This document shows positions 47,318 to 63,255 of a stretch of DNA of 64,000 nucleotides, piece after piece (position 1 is the first letter of the stretch; each line of letters opens with the position of its first letter). A program made the position numbers and the translations under genes. The DNA is from an uncultured Planctomycetota bacterium. Lineage in GTDB: Bacteria > Planctomycetota > Planctomycetia > Isosphaerales > Isosphaeraceae. The notes under the pieces are model-generated. The model was not told the DNA's origin. It worked only from the letters and a program-made list of their open reading frames with translations, and searched no databases. The stretch covers positions 160,001 through 224,000 of the forward strand of contig CAWJTV010000047.1 in NCBI GenBank assembly GCA_963845755.1. Direction: 5' to 3'.

Positions 47318-50458
<3,141 letters not shown>

Positions 50459-50604
50459 GGTGGCCAGGTGGCTGATGGCTAGGGGTGAGAATCCCGTGAC
50501 AGATTGCTCGATAAGTGGCGGATAGCTGGCGACTCGGCAAACACCTCGAACGGGAGTTTGTCCTGGTCTTCGCTAGCCGATAGCCGCCAGCCACTACGAA
50601 TGCG

Positions 50605-52245
50605 CTATTCCTCGTCGGGCTCGTTCTGAAGAATAAGCTCACTCTTGAGAAAGAAGGCGCCGGAGGAAACCACGGGATCGCCTGGACTGAGCCCCGCCTT
50701 GATGACCAGGCGGTCGCCGATCAAGCGGCCAACCTTCACGGGTCTCACCGTGAACGTCCGCGGTGGGCCATTCTTTCCTGCGGGCGAGAAGACAAACTTG
50801 AGGGTATCCACTTCCTCAACCGAATTGGCGGGGACCGTCAGGGCCTCCTCGCTGGCCGAGCTATCCAGGAGGATTCTCACGAACATGTCCACCTTGAGCA
50901 AACCATCACGGTTCTCGGTTTCGGCTCGAATGGGGACCGTACGAGTCTGGGGGTCGACCACGGAGCCGATCGAGAGCAACCGGGCCTGAAACTCTCGGCC
51001 GGGGTAGGCGGTTGCTTTGAAGTGAACCGTCCCGCCCTGGATCCTGGGCAGCTTGGCAAGGTCCGACTCAGGCACGTTCGCCGTGACCCAGGCCGTGCTG
51101 AGATCGGCCAGGTTGAAGAGGACATCGTTCACATCCGCCTTCTGGCTGGGGACGGCCGATCGCTTGATGATTGTGCCGTCGAACGGGGCGACGATCCCGT
51201 AGAACGTCACATCCTCGTCCAGGGCCAGGGCGGTCCCTTGTTCGGGATGTTTCAGCAATTCGCGGATGTCTTCCGAAACCCCGAGGATCCGCAGTCGCTG
51301 GGCCGCGTCCACAACGGCCGCCTCCGCCTGGCGCAACGCCTGGTTGGCCAGGCGATTCTCCTGGGCCGCGTCAAAGGCGACTTGCTCCATGGCCCCTTCG
51401 AGTTTGCCCTGCACACCCTGGCGGGTGTGTCGCGCCATCAGGACCGGGTGTTCGCCGAGATACTGCTGTTGTTTGAGCTTGGAGGTCTTTTCTTCCTCAT
51501 GCGCGGCGATATCGTAATCGGCCAGCGCTTGCAGGAGGGTGCCGCGGTAGGCGCCGAGCTGTTTATCGGCGAATTGCTTCTCGATCGTCTTGGCGTCGTC
51601 CCTGGGGCGTTCCTCATGAGCGTGTTTCGCATCGTCGTGTCGATCCACGACATCCGCGCTGCGTCGCGCAATCTCCTGGCGCAAAACGGGGATCAGGCCG
51701 GCCACGTTGGTGGCGATCTCGGCTTTCCATGCGGCCTCGAAACGCGCGGTGACCAGCTCGCGCTGCCGGGCGCGAAGGTCGAGCCGGCCCTTGCCGATGT
51801 CGGGGCTGTCCAGGATGACCAGCGTATCTCCGCGCTTGACCTGCTGACCCTGCAGAACGTGGACCTCGCGGACGATGCCGGTGGCGCGGGGTCGAATGTC
51901 GACCCGGCGATCGGCGTTGGCCTGGATCAAACCCGGGACTCCAACCTCGGTGGCGATCCGATCCAACCGCGCCGGTTCCGTCGCGATCTTGGCCTCGCGG
52001 TATTTCGACTCCGACAGCGAAATGGTTGACGGAGTGGCCCGGGCCGGCTCTTTCGCTTCCGCACCCGTCCGCGACGCGGACGCGGATTGCGGGGTCTGGA
52101 GTGCCGCATGAAGTCTCGTGGGTCCGAGCAGGTCATAAGTGAGATGAGCGGTCAAGAGGACGAGGCACAATCCCATACCTGCCCACGGTAAAACCTGGCG
52201 TATCGACCATCTGGCCGACCGAGTGTGATTGATTGCAACTGACAT
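50605..52245 (-). CDS. CzcB-like RND periplasmic adaptor with long coiled coil
   Basis: TM anchor, GQQVKRGDTLVILDS, IVAPFDGTI, VDPQTRTVPIRA, GAFFLKSEL. Confidence 0.9.
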   Translation of the reverse strand: MSVAINHTRSARWSIRQVLPWAGMGLCLVLLTAHLTYDLLGPTRLHAALQTPQSASASRTGAEAKEPARATPSTISLSESKYREAKIATEPARLDRIATEVGVPGLIQANADRRVDIRPRATGIVREVHVLQGQQVKRGDTLVILDSPDIGKGRLDLRARQRELVTARFEAAWKAEIATNVAGLIPVLRQEIARRSADVVDRHDDAKHAHEERPRDDAKTIEKQFADKQLGAYRGTLLQALADYDIAAHEEEKTSKLKQQQYLGEHPVLMARHTRQGVQGKLEGAMEQVAFDAAQENRLANQALRQAEAAVVDAAQRLRILGVSEDIRELLKHPEQGTALALDEDVTFYGIVAPFDGTIIKRSAVPSQKADVNDVLFNLADLSTAWVTANVPESDLAKLPRIQGGTVHFKATAYPGREFQARLLSIGSVVDPQTRTVPIRAETENRDGLLKVDMFVRILLDSSASEEALTVPANSVEEVDTLKFVFSPAGKNGPPRTFTVRPVKVGRLIGDRLVIKAGLSPGDPVVSSGAFFLKSELILQNEPDEE

Positions 52246-52494
52246 GAAATGACTCTCCCGTCTGGGTGGGCGAACCGTTTTCGAAGTCGAGGAATCTGCG
52301 GGATATGCCGGATTGTGACCCGGCTTGAGCCGTGTCGTGACGACACAGCAGCCGCTGTCGAAGCCGATCCAGATTGGTCGGTTGATCCGGCACGAGATCT
52401 TGACAGGATTGCGGGCGACGACACGGGCCATCCTGTCGTTCCGCGCGTCCGACGCGCCGAAGGCGACGGACAGATGATCGACGGTTTCGCCGAT

Positions 52495-54622: not shown

Positions 54623-55782
54623 ATGGTGGGCAGACGAAGCGTAGGAGTGCGCCGCGGCGTGTTGGGCCTGACGATCGTCGCGGGTCTTGTCTGGGTACTC
54701 GCAGTGATGTCGGCAGGCCGCCTTGTCGCTGACGACGCGAACCGAAAACCCGCTTCTGGAGCAGATCAGACTCGAGGCGAGGAGCCGGCGTCGCCGCATC
54801 TCAAAGTCCGCCGGTTCGAGATCGGCCAGGGGCCGCGCTCCTACTGGTTGTTCGAGCCCGACCAGCCCCGGCCCGAAAGACGCCCGTGGTCGTCTTCCTC
54901 CACGGCTGGTTCGCGGTCAATCCGGGGTTCTACGGGGCGTGGATCGACCACCTGGTTCGGAATGGCCGGATCGTCATCTTCCCGCGCTACCAGAACGATG
55001 TCGGGACCATGCCGCAGGAGTTCCTGCCCAACGTGGTGGCGGCACTGAATGACGCCTTGGGGGCCCTGCACGTTGGTGTTGACCACGTCCGGCCGGATCT
55101 GACCCGGTTTGCCCTGATCGGCCATTCTGCCGGCGGAAACCTGGCGGCACAGATCGCCGCGCTGGCCGCCGATCCTCACGCGGGACTTCCGATCCCCAAG
55201 GCGCTGGTCGTCGTGATGCCCGGTGAGGTGATCCCGATGCGACGCCCTAGCCTGGACCGCATCCCGGAGTTGACCTTGATGATCGTCATGGTCGGCGAGG
55301 AAGATATCGTTGTCGGCGATCTTCGCGGCAGGCAGATCTTTTCCGAGGCGACCGCAATTCCACCGGCACGCAAGCGGTTCATCTTCTTCCGATCCGATCG
55401 TCATGGACATCCAGCCCTGATCGCCGATCATGCCGCGCCGACCGGTGTCCATCCCAGGCTCGACAACGGCGAAGGCCTCTTCCGTTCGCTTCAATTGAGC
55501 TTCAGCGATGTCAACGCGCTGGATCGCGCGGGTTTCTGGCGAATCGCCGACGTGACACTGGACGCAGCCTTTGCCGGAAAGAGCATCGACGAGATCGCAC
55601 GCGACCCCGAGCGATTCCGGCACCTCGGATACTGGAGTGACGGACGTCGCGTCACGCCTCCCGTCGTAGGCACGGATCTCAAGGACATGCCCCGCGTCAT
55701 CCCGGTCAACGGGCTGAAGATCTTCCCCTGGTCGTTAGCCCCGAAACCCAAAGTCGTGCTGGGTGCCGACCCGTCCCAATGA
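54623..55782 (+). CDS. Secreted alpha/beta hydrolase (frameshift near 54880)
   Basis: Signal-like N-terminus in ORF 54623; VVFLHGW, GHSAGGNLA, GEEDIVV, DHAAP. Confidence 0.85.
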
Positions 55783-57461: not shown

Positions 57462-57505
57462 AAAATCAGGGATAGGTTGGCTCAGCTCCAGGCATTCCTT
57501 GTAGA
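57462..57505 (+). promoter_or_regulatory. Candidate ECF promoter, copy 1
   Basis: aaaatcagggatag-N25-gtaga; starts 73 bp before ATG 57535; same layout at 59306. Confidence 0.5.
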
Positions 57506-57534
57506 GACCTCGATCGAGAAGAGGGGAGCCCAGG

Positions 57535-59292
57535 ATGGCCGGGGGTACATCCGTTGCGCTGTTGCGCGACATCCAGACACTGTTTGACACCGGGACGGCC
57601 GCCGGGCTGTCCGACCGGCAACTGCTCGAGCGGTTCGTCGGCTGTCGCGACGCGACGGCCGAATCGGCGTTCGAGGTCCTGGTCCTGCGCCATGGGCCGA
57701 TGGTCCTGCGCGTCTGCCGCAACGTGCTGCATGATCCGAATGACGTCCAGGACGCCTTTCAGGCCACGTTCCTGGTCCTGGTTCGGCGCAGAGGGGCCGT
57801 GAGCAAACTCGAGTCGCTCGGCGGTTGGCTTTATGGCGTCGCCAACCGGGTGGCGCTGCGGGCACGAGTCGATGCGGCGCGGCGTCGGGCCATTGAGGGA
57901 CGCGCGGCCTTGAGGGTCGTGGAGGCGTTCGAGCCGGACGTTTCCGCCGCGATTGATCCCCAGGAATTCGGTCCGATCATCCAGGAAGAAGTCCGGCGGC
58001 TGCCGCAGAGGTATCGCATTGTGGTGGTGCTGTGCTACTGGGAAGGACTCACGCAGGAACAGGCCGCCAGTCAACTCGGCGTCCCGCTGGGCACCGTGCG
58101 GAGCCGGCTGGCTCGGGCGCGGGAGTTACTGCGGCGACGGCTGGCCCGCCGGGGTCTGGCGCCACTGGCCGGAATGGCGGCGGCGGGCCTTGAGGGCCTT
58201 TCGGCTTCGCTGCCGCGGCTCACCGCGGTCCCGGTTGATCTGATGAAGACGACGATCCAGGCGGCGGGACACGTCGCTGCCCGACAGGCAACGAATCCCG
58301 TGGTCTCGGCGGTGGTCGCATCCCTGGTCAAACAAGTGCTCTGGAGCATGACGATGATCAAGATCAGCGGAATCGTGGCAGGCGTGGTCCTGATGGGATT
58401 GGCCGGTTATGGAGTCAAGGTCGCCGGACAGCAGGCCAGGCCGGTCCAATCAGGGGTCGTTCAAGGGGCGGAGGATCCGACCTCGCCACAGAACCGCCCG
58501 GGACAGGTGCAACCGGGCGCGGGAAGAAGTCCGCTCCTCGGAACACCGGGCCCTTCGAGGGAATCTATTCCAACATCGAGGGCCAGACGACCATCATGAA
58601 GATGCTCCCGAACGGTTCGGTGGTCAAGAAGGGTGATGTCCTCTGCGAGCTGGATGCCGCGGCCCTGCAAGATCGGTTGATCAACCAGAGGATCACCAGA
58701 GAAAGCGCCAAGGCCAACTTTCAGAACGCCAGGCTGGCCCGTGAGGAGGCCGAGATTGAAGCGTCCTGGTTTCAGGACGAGATCTACCCTCGCGAGAAAC
58801 GGGAGGTCGAAGGGGAAGTCACAGTCGCGGAGTCCGAAGTGGTGGTGGGAGAGGCCGAGCTAAAGGAGGTCAAATCGATCGGCGGCAACAATGAACTGGC
58901 CCTCAAGCGGGCTGATCTGGCGATCGCTCGCTCCAGGCTCGCCTTGGTGAAGGCGAGGAATCGACTCCACATCTTGACCCATTACACCAAGGACCATCGG
59001 ACCAAGGAGCTGGTCATCGAGGTGGAGAAGACCTGGTCGAACGAGCTGGCCAAAGGAGCCACCTGGGAGCTGGAGAAGAACAAGGAGGCGAAGTTGGAAC
59101 GGCAGATCGCCGCCTGCACGATCAAGGCCCCGATCGACGGTACCGTGGTCTATGCCGACTTCGTGAGTCAGGATGCGACGACGAAAAGCCAGCCCCGGCT
59201 CCTTCACATCGAGGTCGGGGCGAGCGTCGCGCGAGCGACAGCTCATCTTGCGGATTGTTCCCCCTCCCACGGCCGCCCCCGATCCGCGGTAA
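57535..59292 (+). CDS. ECF sigma factor fused to a TM helix and a truncated HlyD/MFP domain (frameshifts near 58550 and 59230; end approximate)
   Basis: LSDRQLLERF, DAFQATFLVL, LCYWEGLTQEQAA..LGVPLGTVRSRL; then IYSNIEGQTTI-MKMLPNGSVVKKGDVLCELD, helical hairpin, CTIKAPIDGTVVY. Confidence 0.8.
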
Positions 59293-59305
59293 GATACGTG
59301 GAACG

Positions 59306-59349
59306 AAAATCAGGGATAGCCGGGCCCCGCTCCGGGGACTACTGGTAGA
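59306..59349 (+). promoter_or_regulatory. Candidate ECF promoter, copy 2
   Basis: aaaatcagggatag-N25-gtaga; starts 73 bp before ATG 59379. Confidence 0.5.
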
Positions 59350-59378
59350 AACCCTGATCGAGACCACGGGAGTTCCGC

Positions 59379-61262
59379 ATGGCCGGGGGTACATCCGTCG
59401 AGCTGTTGCGCGACATCCAGATCCTCTTCGACGCGGGGACTGCGAGCGGCTTGTCCGACCGGCAATTGCTGGATCGATTCACGAACCATCGCGACCCATC
59501 GGCGTTCGAGGTCCTGGTCTCGCGACACGGGCCGATGGTCCTGCGCGTCTGCCGGAATCTCCTCGCCGACCCAAACGACGCCCAGGATGCCTTCCAGGCG
59601 ACGTTCTTGATCCTGGTTCGGCGGTCCGGTTCGATCCGGAGGCTGGATTCGGTCGGAAGCTGGCTCTACGGTGTCGCCAGCCGGGTGGCGGCGCGGGTGC
59701 GCGTCGGGGCATCGCGCCGCAGGGTCGCCGAGGAGCGAGCGGCGGCCCGGGTCCTTGAGGCGATCGATCCTTGCCAGGGCGAGCCCGACCTGGTGGAGTT
59801 CGGCCCGATCGTCCAGGAGGAAGTCCGGCGACTGCCTGAGAAATACCGCTCCGCGGTGATTCTCTGCTACTGGGAAGGCCTGACGCAGGAACAGGCCGCC
59901 GTTCAACTCGGAATCCCGCTGGGCACGGTGCGGAGCCGGATTGCCCGAGCGCGTGACTTGTTACGCCGACGGCTGACGAGGCGTGGTTCGGCGCCGGTTG
60001 CCGGTATCGTATCGGCGGGCATGGATACAGCCCCCTATTTGCTGGGACGACTCCCTCAGATCTCATCCGGGCTGGTCCATTCCACGGTCCAGGCCGCATC
60101 TCGCTTCGCCGCCGGCCAGGCGCCGGTCCAGGTCGTTTCCGGATCGGCCGCTTCGTTGGTTCAACGCATTCTGTGGAGCATGGCGATGATCAAGTTTTGC
60201 AAACTCGCGACGGCTCTGTCAGTCCTTGTCCTGACCATCTGGGGCGTGAGCCTCTGGGCCCAGCAACCGGAGGCGCGGCGTCCAAGAACCCGCCCTCAGG
60301 CCCGACCGGAGCACACTCCACCGATCCAGGCCAAGACGGCACCGCCCCTCCAGGATGGGCCGGCCCACACCATCGAGCCCCCCGACCTCGTCCTGGTCGA
60401 GGTCCTTGAGGGTCTCCCCGGCCGGCCAATCTCCGGCGAGCGCCTCGTCCGACCTGACGGTACCATCAGCCTGGGATTCTACGGAGAAGTCCATGTTGCC
60501 GGCCTGACCCTCCTCGAGGCCAAGGAGAAGATCGTCCGACACTTGCGGAAATCCATTTCCGACGAGTTGCTGGGACTGACGGAAATCGATCCCGAGACGG
60601 GAGAGCCTGCGATCGATCCCAAGACCAAGAAACTCAAGAGAATCGATCCCAAGGATACCGACCGGGTCTTCGTCGACGTCACCGCTTACAACAGCAAGAA
60701 CTACTACGTCGAAGGTGAGGTCTGGTATCCGGGGAGATTGCCCTTCACCGGCCGGGAGTCGGTGCTCGATGTCCTCCATTTCGTTGGCGGTCCTGCTCCT
60801 GCGGCCGACCGATCCGGCATCCGTCTGATTCGCAGCTTTCCGGCGGGATCGCCCGTGCAGGTCCTGCCGATCGATTACGAAGAAATCACGATGGGGACCG
60901 ACTCGTTGACCAATTATCAGATCCTGCCCGGTGATCGACTCGTCATTCCCCGCGATCCCAATTACGTCCCACCCGAATCAGCGCCGGTCCGATCTCAACA
61001 AAGAGCTCCGCAAGCGCCGAAATTGCCGCACGACCCGAGCAGGTATTATTTCCCGTCGAGTAGCGGCGACGCAGCCGACAAACATCTCGAAACCCTCCAT
61101 TCCGTGGAGCGTCACGTGACCGAGCTCGAGCGGAAGCTCGATCAGATCATCGAGAGGATGGATCGCGCAGCAGAGAAGGCGCAAACCAAGTCCTCCGAGA
61201 AGCCGAGATCGCGCGGCGGATCTGCACCCGTTCGGCGCGAAGAGAATTCATCCGAGGAATAG
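59379..61262 (+). CDS. ECF sigma factor fused to a polysaccharide export (Wza-like Poly_export + SLBB) module
   Basis: One unbroken 627-aa ORF: sigma2/sigma4, helix ending SLWAQ, HTIEPPDLVLVEV, LVRPDGTISLGFYGEVHVAGLTL, YYVEGEVWYPGRLP, NYQILPGDRLVIP. Confidence 0.9.
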   Translation: MAGGTSVELLRDIQILFDAGTASGLSDRQLLDRFTNHRDPSAFEVLVSRHGPMVLRVCRNLLADPNDAQDAFQATFLILVRRSGSIRRLDSVGSWLYGVASRVAARVRVGASRRRVAEERAAARVLEAIDPCQGEPDLVEFGPIVQEEVRRLPEKYRSAVILCYWEGLTQEQAAVQLGIPLGTVRSRIARARDLLRRRLTRRGSAPVAGIVSAGMDTAPYLLGRLPQISSGLVHSTVQAASRFAAGQAPVQVVSGSAASLVQRILWSMAMIKFCKLATALSVLVLTIWGVSLWAQQPEARRPRTRPQARPEHTPPIQAKTAPPLQDGPAHTIEPPDLVLVEVLEGLPGRPISGERLVRPDGTISLGFYGEVHVAGLTLLEAKEKIVRHLRKSISDELLGLTEIDPETGEPAIDPKTKKLKRIDPKDTDRVFVDVTAYNSKNYYVEGEVWYPGRLPFTGRESVLDVLHFVGGPAPAADRSGIRLIRSFPAGSPVQVLPIDYEEITMGTDSLTNYQILPGDRLVIPRDPNYVPPESAPVRSQQRAPQAPKLPHDPSRYYFPSSSGDAADKHLETLHSVERHVTELERKLDQIIERMDRAAEKAQTKSSEKPRSRGGSAPVRREENSSEE

Positions 61263-61267
61263 AGTGC

Positions 61268-61450
61268 TTGCTCCCAGTTCCGGGAGATAGGATCTGGTTC
61301 CTCGCACCGGCCTGTGCCGGGGAAAGGTGCGGGAGTGAGGTGGAGCTGAAGCTCGACGGGATCCTGGAGGCCCTCAACAAATCAAGCCAAGGGCGGCCAG
61401 ATGGACGCGTCCGCCGCTGGGTGATCGCTCTGGAGATGCGCGTGGGATAA
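61268..61450 (+). pseudogene. Remnant of the C-terminal end of another Poly_export/SLBB paralog
   Basis: LPVPGDRIWFL resembles ILPGDRLVIP; EVELKLDGILEAL resembles ELERKLDQIIERM and EIEAKLDRLLEAT. Confidence 0.45.
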
Positions 61451-61532
61451 ACTGGAGGACTCCGGGCACAATTCGAGTTTGGTACCGGTCGCCTCGGATA
61501 CCCCTCTTCATCGCGTTCTCTGGAGCACGGCC

Positions 61533-63255
61533 ATGTTCAAGCACAACAAGACGACTGCCGTGTTGGTTATGTTCACCCTCACCGTGATGGGAACGAGTCT
61601 GTGGGCACAGCCATCGGGCCGATCTCGCCCCAGGCGGCGAGCGCGGCCTCAGCCGGAGGCGGCCGCGCCAAAGACGCCTAGAACTCCTTCAGAAGATGCG
61701 GCCGTGACGGAATCCACTCCAGACCGTCCGGCCCAGCCCGCCCCGCCGGTCAAGTATTTGGAAGCCGGCGCGAAGCTTTTCAACACCGGTCAGTACGAGC
61801 TGGCCGCCAAATACCTGGACGCCGCCAATCGGTATCGGGACCAGCTTCAGCAGGACGAACGCGTAATGCTCGACGCGTATCTCAAGGAGCTAGCTAAGGT
61901 CCAAGAGACTGCGCAGGAGGCGCTCCCGAGGTTGCCTGCCGAAGCCTCCTCCTCCAGGGCATCCAACCGCTCAGCGAAGGAAACCAAGCGGCCGGAGTAT
62001 GTTGTCGAGCCCCCAGACCTGATCCTTGTTGAGGTTCTCGAAGCCGCGCCTGGCCGTCCGATCTCCGGCGAGCGGCTGGTCCGGCCCGACGGCAGGGTAT
62101 CTCTGGGTTTCTATGGCGAGGTTGAGGTTGCTGGTCTGTCGATCCCCGAGATCAAGGAAAAGATCGTCCTCCACCTGCGGACGTACCTCAGCGATCGGAC
62201 ACTCGGGCTGGTCGAGATCGATCCTTACACCGGCGAGCCGACGGTCGATCCCACTACCAATAAAATCAAGCAGATCGATCCCCGAGACACGGACCGTGTC
62301 TTCGTTGACGTCACGGCTTACAATAGCTCACATGTTTACGTTGAGGGAGATGTGCTCCTTCCCAGGCAGATTCCCTATACCGGCGGAGATACCGTCCTGG
62401 ATTTGATTCATGACGCCGGTGGATTGTTACCCACCTGCGATCAGACCAGGATCCGCCTGATCCGGAGTTTTCCCAAGGGCTCACCCGCCCGAGTCCTCCC
62501 GGTCGATTACCAACAGATCACCATGGGGACAGACTCCTCGACCAATTACGCAGTCTTGCCCAACGATCGTCTCGTCGTTCCTCGCGACCCGTCCGTTACC
62601 ATAGACCCGGCCTCCGCTCGCAGATTGACCTCGTCTGGCGAGAAACTCCGTGCCAAGCTGATTCCCAACCGACTCGAAGGGAGTCTCTTTTACGATCGTG
62701 GGAGGGAGAGGAGTGGATATTTCGATCGCCAGTCAGCACTGATGACCGACGACGACCAGAACACCCTGGAACCCATTATCTCCGAGATCGAGGCGAAGCT
62801 GGACAGGTTGCTCGAAGCGACGGCTGCCATCGAAAAGGAGACCGCCGAGCGAGCGAGCCAAAGGCCCGCCATGACGCCCGAGGAACTCTCTCAGCTCGAG
62901 ATGGACGACGAGGAACTCGAGAGAATCCTGCCCGAACTGAGACAGAGGAGGCAAACGACACCCGAGAATCCCCGGTCGTTGCCAAGGCGCCTTCGCCCCA
63001 GGTTGGTGCGACCGTTCCCTGGTAATCGGCCATCGGCGCCGTGCGCCGCGAAGAGATCCGGAACCCGCCCGACGAGTCTTCGCGGCCCGAGTCGATGCCG
63101 CGACCGCCCGAATCGTCCAGCCCGCAGATTCCGCGGGAGCAACGGTCACCGTTCGATATGCCGCCTCCGGGTGATACACCTGTCGCGCCCAAGGTCCGTT
63201 CGCCATTCGCTGATGATGAGCCAACTTCTCCCCCGGTCAAGCCGGAGCGCGCTAG
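61533..63255 (+). CDS. Secreted Poly_export/SLBB protein, sigma-less paralog of the preceding gene (3' end frameshifted, approximate)
   Basis: MFKHNKTTAVLVMFTLTVMGTSLWAQ; YVVEPPDLILVEV, GRPISGERLVRPDG, DTDRVFVDVTAYNS, ITMGTDSSTNY; Pro-rich tail in ORF 63041. Confidence 0.85.

Follow-up and report, generated by a model that had tools for sequence, protein, structure and literature searches.

A conserved planctomycete array of ECF57-like sigma factors joined to trimmed export-machine cores

Why is a sigma factor encoded in one gene with part of an export machine? This question is raised by a tandem array in the genome of an uncultured Planctomycetota bacterium of the family Isosphaeraceae (GCA_963845755.1; 14.3 Mb in 49 contigs). 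The array lies on the forward strand at positions 57462 to 63255 of the 64,000-nucleotide stretch analyzed here, termed the window (contig CAWJTV010000047.1, positions 160,001 to 224,000; G000:C47:160001-224000), to which all coordinates given without a contig refer. Two genes, A and B, encode extracytoplasmic function (ECF) sigma factors continued by a linker and a signal-peptide-like membrane helix into the core of an efflux adaptor (A) or of an outer-membrane polysaccharide export protein (OPX; B), and a third gene, C, encodes an OPX core lacking the sigma factor. Our analysis confirms the array and its conservation across Isosphaeraceae, and its fusions represent an uncharacterized variant of the sigma factor group ECF57.

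Architecture and conservation of the array

A preliminary description, made from the sequence alone, had reported two closely related ECF cores with a shared N-terminal motif, and both were found, at 57535 (gene A) and 59379 (gene B). They pass the Pfam models Sigma70_r2 and r4_2 as well as TIGR02937. Gene B (59379-61262, 627 aa) comprises sigma2, sigma4, Poly_export, and SLBB. Its ECF core, containing Cys58 and Cys163, and the linker (residues 204-269) occupy 59379-60185; they are followed by the membrane helix (60186-60260), the OPX domains D1 (Poly_export) and D2 (SLBB) at 60360-60956, and a C-terminal helix, a probable coiled coil, at 61071-61193. The Wza-like character ascribed to the OPX cargos proved correct: Poly_export and SLBB each score above the Pfam cut-off or at most 0.1 bit short of it in gene B and both above it in gene C, and the structure model of gene B matches Wza D1-D2 (7xfd, TM 0.76 by target, E 1e-11) and the class-3 protein WzaB.

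Gene A has its core and linker at 57535-58353, its helix at 58354-58428 and, at 58557-59292, a cargo consisting of the lipoyl and alpha-hairpin region of an efflux adaptor, with neither barrel nor membrane-proximal domain. The earlier statement that both cores run through a WSM(T/A)MIK motif and a hydrophobic helix into their cargo holds only in part: the helix is present in both, but gene A as assembled is not one frame. Its sigma reading frame stops at 58599, and the adaptor piece lies in another frame, with breaks near 58515 and 59231 and an ortholog-matching end at the TAA at 59290-59292. These breaks are probably assembly errors, since ten gene A orthologs in the loci fetched for comparison are in frame (~540-590 aa, one 802), a genome of the same genus reads through the join, and frame changes also affect 15 of 61 ordinary genes of this assembly. 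The protein P0278 matches the sigma frame at 62% and the adaptor frame at 69%, and none of the short-read DNA contigs covers either break. A true pseudogene is considered unlikely in view of the intact orthologs and the high frame-error background. Likewise, the assignment of the cargo as a HlyD/MFP (membrane fusion protein) lipoyl hairpin survives with a reservation. No HlyD match lies above the curated cut-offs (Pfam Biotin_lipoyl_2, E 0.011; TIGR01730, E 6e-9, 35 bits vs a cut-off of 94.9); we name it an adaptor because it is 49% identical (BLASTP, E 1e-63) to the full adaptor that contig C22 of the same genome encodes in a MacAB-TolC-like operon.

Downstream of gene B, a third ECF-OPX gene has left a remnant of its 3' end (61337-61377), which matches the DNA of gene ends in L019, L023, L025, and L031 at 81-88%, and the same-genus genome carries at this place a third ECF gene with the promoter-like motif shared by the array. 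A third ECF-OPX paralog with this motif is located elsewhere in our genome, adjoining transposase-like genes (G000:C5:497041-498982, L123); its counterpart sits inside the array of the same-genus genome (L223). Gene C (61522-63255, ATG at 61533) is sigma-less, as described, and carries Poly_export and SLBB only. Its tail is frame-broken at 63040, where one short-read contig has one more base, and its end is uncertain. Proteins of the C type form a clade of their own (13 rows, support 98) in a quick OPX tree that used 87 of 198 domains and has many open forks. Ahead of its OPX domain, gene C has a short helical insert (61722-61910, YLEAG...LAKV) with no Pfam match, which is kept in P0053 and P0064.

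The recurrent gene order is hydrolase, histidine kinase, ECF-adaptor, ECF-OPX, sigma-less OPX, and FAA hydrolase, with copies gained and lost among loci. With the window counted, the histidine kinase gene is found in 20/67 and the FAA gene in 23/67 loci; one locus (L012) holds three ECF-OPX genes in tandem. A single match covering sigma and OPX was obtained in 42 of 121 genomes of the order (own genome counted; one with an internal stop), so the architecture is not unique to this assembly. Among the best 120 homologs of the gene B cargo, the ECF core is complete in 64, partial in 9, and absent from 47, and an ECF or linker is present on 61 of 120 homologs of the gene A adaptor piece. Relatives of gene B include Aquisphaera insulae JC669 and Paludisphaera soli JC670. 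When 301 genomes were drawn from across the phylum, the gene B OPX module matched at E 1e-15 in its own genome only; this sample contained no other genome of the family and is uninformative on the fusion.

In agreement with the preliminary description, no anti-sigma gene was found among the neighbors scanned; the 24 neighbor families scanned around the array contained no polysaccharide co-polymerase or transporter and no outer-membrane receptor. A neighbor family of ~1,300 residues (c12; e.g., L001:5321-9451) with no Pfam match is found near the array in 15 loci. Upstream in the window lie CusA/CusB-type efflux genes (48635-52431) and an alpha/beta hydrolase gene (54623-55782); the CusA-like gene and the hydrolase gene look frame-broken, as do many genes of this assembly.

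The unit of sigma factor, linker, and helix, here called the chassis, recurs at ~90 loci of the genome with unrelated cargos, its linker and helix being homologous across them; 50 of these loci are called in at least two pieces. This supports the proposed modular one-component cassette with a tethered sigma. The 63 cargos scanned (61 plus A and B) comprise 20 CarboxypepD_reg repeat proteins, 8 propellers, 5 adaptors, 2 OPX, 1 TolC-like protein, 12 others that match a Pfam family, and 15 that match none, export parts being a minority (8/63). ECF fusions carrying CarboxypepD_reg repeats also form two tandem banks, one of seven (G000:C11:758573-781000) and one of three (G000:C1:109931-118800), and single ECF fusions to OmpH, TolC-like, trypsin, M16, S41, CBM9, and di-haem domains were also seen. 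Genomes holding the chassis module number 41/48 in the same family, 23/42 and 3/6 in two other families, and 0/104 among the others.

By sequence features, the chassis fits the published description of ECF57, Cys pair included: across 134 sequences C58 is invariant and C163 present in at least 90%. One feature may differ, as about two membrane helices are described for the group and we find one. Across 66 paralogs only the segment following KLK scores as a membrane span, 89% having one hydrophobic helix, and a two-helix topology was rejected; the count comes from a simple hydrophobicity scale, and other predictors may have included the Ala-rich linker helices in theirs. ECF57 belongs to the most expanded planctomycete sigma groups, with a mean of 5.3 per genome (PMC7826278, in the sections consulted), and its activation figures only as a hypothesis in the consulted parts of the published accounts (PMC7826278, PMC8999054). 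Poly_export, SLBB, HlyD, OEP, and Secretin already appear in the accessible part of the PMC7671368 supplement as Pfam families of planctomycete sigma extensions. Such domain combinations have thus been recorded before, though they are uncharacterized in the portion of the text examined, which explains the extensions as fortuitous captures. The literature searched gave no account of an internal start or of trimmed OPX/adaptor cargos; Jogler 2012, Wiegand 2020, or supplements may describe such architectures.

Trimmed cargos

Both cargos are consistently trimmed and under purifying selection. In the fetched loci, a lipobox is present in 0/28 fused vs 22/27 free OPX proteins, and the motif of the pore helix, i.e., the C-terminal outer-membrane helix, in 0/28 vs 24/27. 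A coiled-coil-like tail takes its place in 22 of the 28 fused proteins; in gene B it corresponds to the helix predicted at residues 565-605, within the ~100 residues following the last SLBB. The free OPX of these genomes is a lipoprotein, with a C-terminal helix that we read as Wza_C-like. The fused adaptors stop 37-56 residues past an AP.DG motif in 53/53 measured proteins (8/61 fusions without the motif excluded), compared with at least 250 residues in 52/56 other adaptors. Estimates of dN/dS, rough as dS is near saturation, lay at about 0.13-0.48 (OPX domains), 0.20-0.46 (adaptor), and 0.12-0.38 (sigma factor). Because parts needed for transport are absent, the cargos cannot be working exporters; judged by sequence similarity, they derive from host export proteins. 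Their anatomy supports the term decoy used in the preliminary description.

Gene B was considered and rejected as the working Wza of the cell, since a separate lipoprotein OPX is encoded on contig C34 (G000:C34:507574-508505, L120). This conserved type, with one SLBB and a C-terminal helix, is also found in L036-L066, flanked by genes without a Pfam match and by a dual-specificity-type phosphatase gene; no co-polymerase was seen nearby. D1 of gene B is 68% like this free form and 67% like other fused copies, D2 50% vs 55%. Two ECF-adaptor orthologs (L031:5525-7930 and P0305) have a MacB periplasmic core domain inserted between helix and adaptor piece. Sigma-less relatives of the adaptor piece with signal-peptide-like starts were also observed (P0273, P0274, P0276, P0302), P0274 and P0276 ending where the gene A cargo ends.

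The same OPX D1-D2 module is fused directly to a TIR domain in five proteins having neither signal peptide nor membrane helix (P0072, P0076, P0082, P0105, P0114). They fall within the ECF-OPX clade, apparently with two origins, which points to a portable assembly module; the fusion may serve as a ring scaffold for TIR activation. No TIR-OPX fusion was found in the 121 genomes of the order, where matches took in the OPX part only.

Internal start, linker, and promoter-like motif

Three features overlooked in the preliminary description, an internal start, a predicted signal peptidase site, and a promoter-like motif, bear on how these fusions may work. The helix opens at a conserved Met (ATG in 67/77 paralog rows), preceded by a Shine-Dalgarno (SD) word in 49 of 67 paralogs vs 9.2% of other internal Met codons; a null of synonymous resampling gave 12.9 +/- 2.8 (maximum 20 in 300). 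The SD word recurred in three sets from 15 other genomes (21/24, 19/25, and 19/29; null maxima 11, 9, and 9; 5, 1, and 2 rows without a Met near the column dropped), in which control Gly columns vary freely among synonymous codons. The Gly codon at -5 is GGA in 37 of 42 listed codons vs 11.9% genome-wide, and no other column is as codon-constrained when 152 genes are compared (GGA 77 vs 14 expected). Folding of the mRNA falls below null strength only around the internal ATG (+1.97 kcal, z 9.4).

In genes A and B the signal reads GGAG, 7-nt spacer, in-frame ATG (58343-58356 and 60175-60188, respectively). Of 53 rows of the A/B subfamily, 42 have GGAG-N7-ATG, five another spacing, and six none; SD and ATG have both been shifted, and GGAG is held via W-S, R-S, G-S, W-R, and R-R codon pairs. 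The apparent start of gene C is this same signal, and together with the C-type clade it indicates that the short product exists as a gene. As the helix opens at an ATG behind an SD word conserved at codon level, a second product, the secreted cargo alone, is probably made from the internal start. Four ECF-OPX proteins (P0099, P0111, P0113, P0117) lack the A-Q cleavage-like motif described below; in three of the four the second Met is missing as well, and the two may have been lost together.

A structure model of residues 1-296 of gene B, built on an alignment of 134 sequences, forms one compact unit (pTM 0.82); the full-length model (59 close sequences) reached a pTM of 0.35. The arrangement of sigma2 and sigma4 in the model deviates by an rmsd of 9-15 Å from anti-sigma-bound ECFs and of 23-30 Å from polymerase-bound ones. 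Covariation ranks the sigma2-sigma4 and sigma2-linker pairs N60-Q146, H50-E166, F72-L232, E44-V233, and V47-V237 high. On the basis of the compact model, its anti-sigma-like arrangement, and the covariation, we predict that the linker serves as a built-in anti-sigma, holding the sigma factor closed, and moderately favor such an inhibitor with proteolytic release. A separate gene for a linker-type anti-sigma was not found in the genome, 85 matches lying near ECFs and 3 elsewhere (one spurious, two remnants). In a wide fold search no row reached beyond about residue 222, leaving the linker fold uncovered.

The helix of gene B has the shape of a Sec signal peptide and ends in S-L-W-A followed by Q-Q, which is predicted to be a signal peptidase I site; the motif of gene A is weaker. 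Orthologs of gene B keep Ala294 in 54/59 and Gly289 in 59/59 in this region, and family-wide a strict cleavage motif is present in 78/136 sequences vs 58.7 after shuffling (maximum 77 in 1000). M50 proteases are encoded in the genome.

Ahead of genes A and B lies a promoter-like motif composed of an A-tract, GGATAG, a 15-nt spacer, and GGCA[C/T]T (57462-57498 and 59306-59342); gene B has the variant -10 GGGACT, which is kept in relatives. The form AAAAT-N3-GGATAG-N15-GGCA[C/T]T was found upstream of 44/55 genes from subfamily loci. Within the genome, matrix scores >17 occur ahead of A, B, and the C5 paralog only, suggesting that the regulon is the array itself; the motif was not found before exporter genes. 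Self-activation, i.e., transcription by the sigma of its own gene, is accordingly what the position of the motif suggests, and we consider it likely. A wider regulon was set aside: 81 loose core matches, 29 of them outside called genes, included none before an OPX gene, with no null for comparison. Across the genome, 29 of 72 regions upstream of ECF-family genes contain a GCA[C/G/T]T[A/C]-like -10 word, often at a distance of 35-57 nt from the start and with differing -35 words (no null); these are possibly paralog-specific self-promoters.

A possible assembly-controlled circuit and its relation to known systems

From these features we propose a mechanism in which each of genes A and B, an ECF57-type sigma joined by linker and signal-peptide-like helix to a trimmed export-machine core, would give two proteins: a membrane-tethered sigma held shut by its linker and, from the internal start, a secreted cargo. 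Signal peptidase and subsequently RseP would free the sigma, which would transcribe its own gene in a self-amplifying manner. The trimmed cargo would most likely act as an assembly module: its tethered copies and its free ones, the gene C product among them, would associate in the periplasm and shield the cleavage site. Loss or misfolding of free cargo, or its diversion to a related OPX or adaptor of the host, would expose the site and release the sigma, leading to more cargo. We infer such assembly-controlled cleavage from the combination of parts; as a full one-gene circuit the proposal is tentative, and we place it slightly below an even chance.

Several observations weigh against it. The closed-sigma model matches none of the solved complexes closely (best TM about 0.5), and model and covariation use overlapping alignments and are therefore not independent. 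The excess of the strict cleavage motif is modest, a looser motif is not enriched (83/136 vs 83.7), and many gene A orthologs are without a clear cleavage site. The internal signal is missing from the 6/53 subfamily rows noted above, and 8 to 10 members per 66-77 have no helix Met; paralogs and their kin are not independent in these counts, and the W-S counts are overstated, the Ser codon class being inherited. Use of the upstream motif by the sigma is inferred from position only. Finally, the class-3 OPX WzaB is monomeric unless lipidated (PMC12819527, in the parts consulted), so that self-assembly of the gene B cargo is not given and may depend on tether or tail.

The strongest competing explanation, already put forward in the preliminary description and regarded here as fairly unlikely, is that the tethered cargo probes exporters directly by joining or docking on the host OPX/co-polymerase or MacAB-TolC machine, whose state controls sigma release. 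Such docking would suit the closeness of gene B D1 to the free lipoprotein OPX, the identity of the gene A cargo to the host adaptor, and the MacB periplasmic domain added in L031 and P0305. It is opposed by the conserved neighborhood, in which no exporter, co-polymerase, or barrel gene was seen, by Wzz-type matches lying at least 127 kb from any OPX on the same contig, by the lack of the promoter motif ahead of exporter genes, by the five cytoplasmic TIR-OPX fusions of the same clade, and by the small share of export parts among the cargos. Unlikely, and somewhat more so, is a circuit auditing envelope machines with one gene, in which secreted transport-dead and sigma-tethered copies would enter or compete for host OPX or MacAB-TolC assemblies, signal peptidase would read the result, and the freed sigma would amplify the array only.

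If the cargo were an output only, it would be a secreted effector that modulates export machines or is dominant-negative toward them, and the sigma would be released in response to some general cue, e.g., envelope stress or the state of the Cys58/Cys163 pair. The internal start, the self-promoter, and stand-alone secreted forms (the gene C clade; P0273, P0274, P0276, P0302) would then mean that free cargo is kept for its own sake, and the Cys pair is conserved; left unexplained are the in-frame linkage of cargo and sigma in most genomes and the apparently different -35 elements of paralogs (no null), and we consider this account improbable.

Quite improbable is the idea that the internal SD-ATG is a relic or makes ribosomes pause for membrane targeting, with a single protein made from each gene. 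The long family-wide spacing, 11-12 nt in 85 of 99 GGAG rows, would be in keeping with it. It is countered by an ATG at fixed spacing, an SD and ATG that moved together in the subfamily, the weakest folding centered on the ATG, control Gly columns that vary synonymously, and the start of gene C at this signal. Fortuitous capture of a cargo without a role, by insertion of sigma2-sigma4 into export genes (the model in the accessible part of PMC7671368), would suit diverse, often swapped cargos and array copies gained and lost, but it is highly improbable because the shared, duplicated unit includes linker, ribosome-binding site with its ATG, and signal-peptide-like helix as well as sigma2-sigma4, the cargos show the dN/dS values given above, and their end points are fixed across dozens of proteins.

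Should the auditing circuit prove right, a chassis with ~90 swappable ectodomains per genome would amount to a sense-and-secrete repertoire uniting sensor, regulator, and output in one reading frame; if the trimmed cores do probe host exporters, they would provide an undescribed route for reporting export-machine assembly to transcription. The locus offers concrete handles on ECF57 activation in its internal start, predicted cleavage site, predicted inhibitor, and candidate promoter, and orthologs exist in cultured Aquisphaera and Paludisphaera.

In a comparison with known systems, made from the consulted parts of the sources cited, the gene B type shares the Poly_export plus SLBB fold with class 1 Wza and class 3 WzaB/EpsY (bioRxiv 10.1101/2022.02.11.480155, PMC12819527). 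Unlike Wza, it lacks the lipoprotein signal and the C-terminal outer-membrane helix; unlike either class, it has a sigma fusion and a coiled-coil tail, with no co-polymerase or porin gene seen alongside (such partners may be encoded elsewhere), and class 3 proteins have no appreciable sequence after the last SLBB. Gene A shares the lipoyl and alpha-hairpin region with MacA/HlyD-type adaptors, but none of the fused orthologs measured has the barrel or the membrane-proximal domain of these adaptors, and the array contains no transporter gene.

IutY of Pseudomonas putida (PMC5411451, PMC8999054) likewise joins a sigma and a periplasmic domain in one chain, and stepwise proteolysis ending with RseP, proposed here, was shown there. 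IutY serves cell-surface signaling with an outer-membrane receptor and uses Prc, whereas no receptor was seen near the array; moreover, such hybrids (ECF243) carry a FecR-type periplasmic domain instead of a swappable OPX or adaptor cargo, and the helix here resembles a cleavable signal peptide. For a site-1 cut by signal peptidase followed by a site-2 cut by RasP/RseP, under control of outer-domain binding, RsiV/sigmaV is a precedent (PMC9044953), RsiV being a separate Firmicutes anti-sigma that binds lysozyme.

Closest is ECF57 itself (PMC7826278, PMC8999054), a planctomycete group with sigma2 and sigma4, a Cys in each, a long extension, a membrane helix, and no separate anti-sigma, for which membrane release has already been proposed. 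The consulted texts name no internal start, cleavage site, or built-in inhibitor, describe WD40 extensions and about two helices on average, and call the promoters not conserved; the fusions described here have apparently one helix, trimmed OPX or adaptor cargos, and a promoter-like motif that is conserved in their subfamily.

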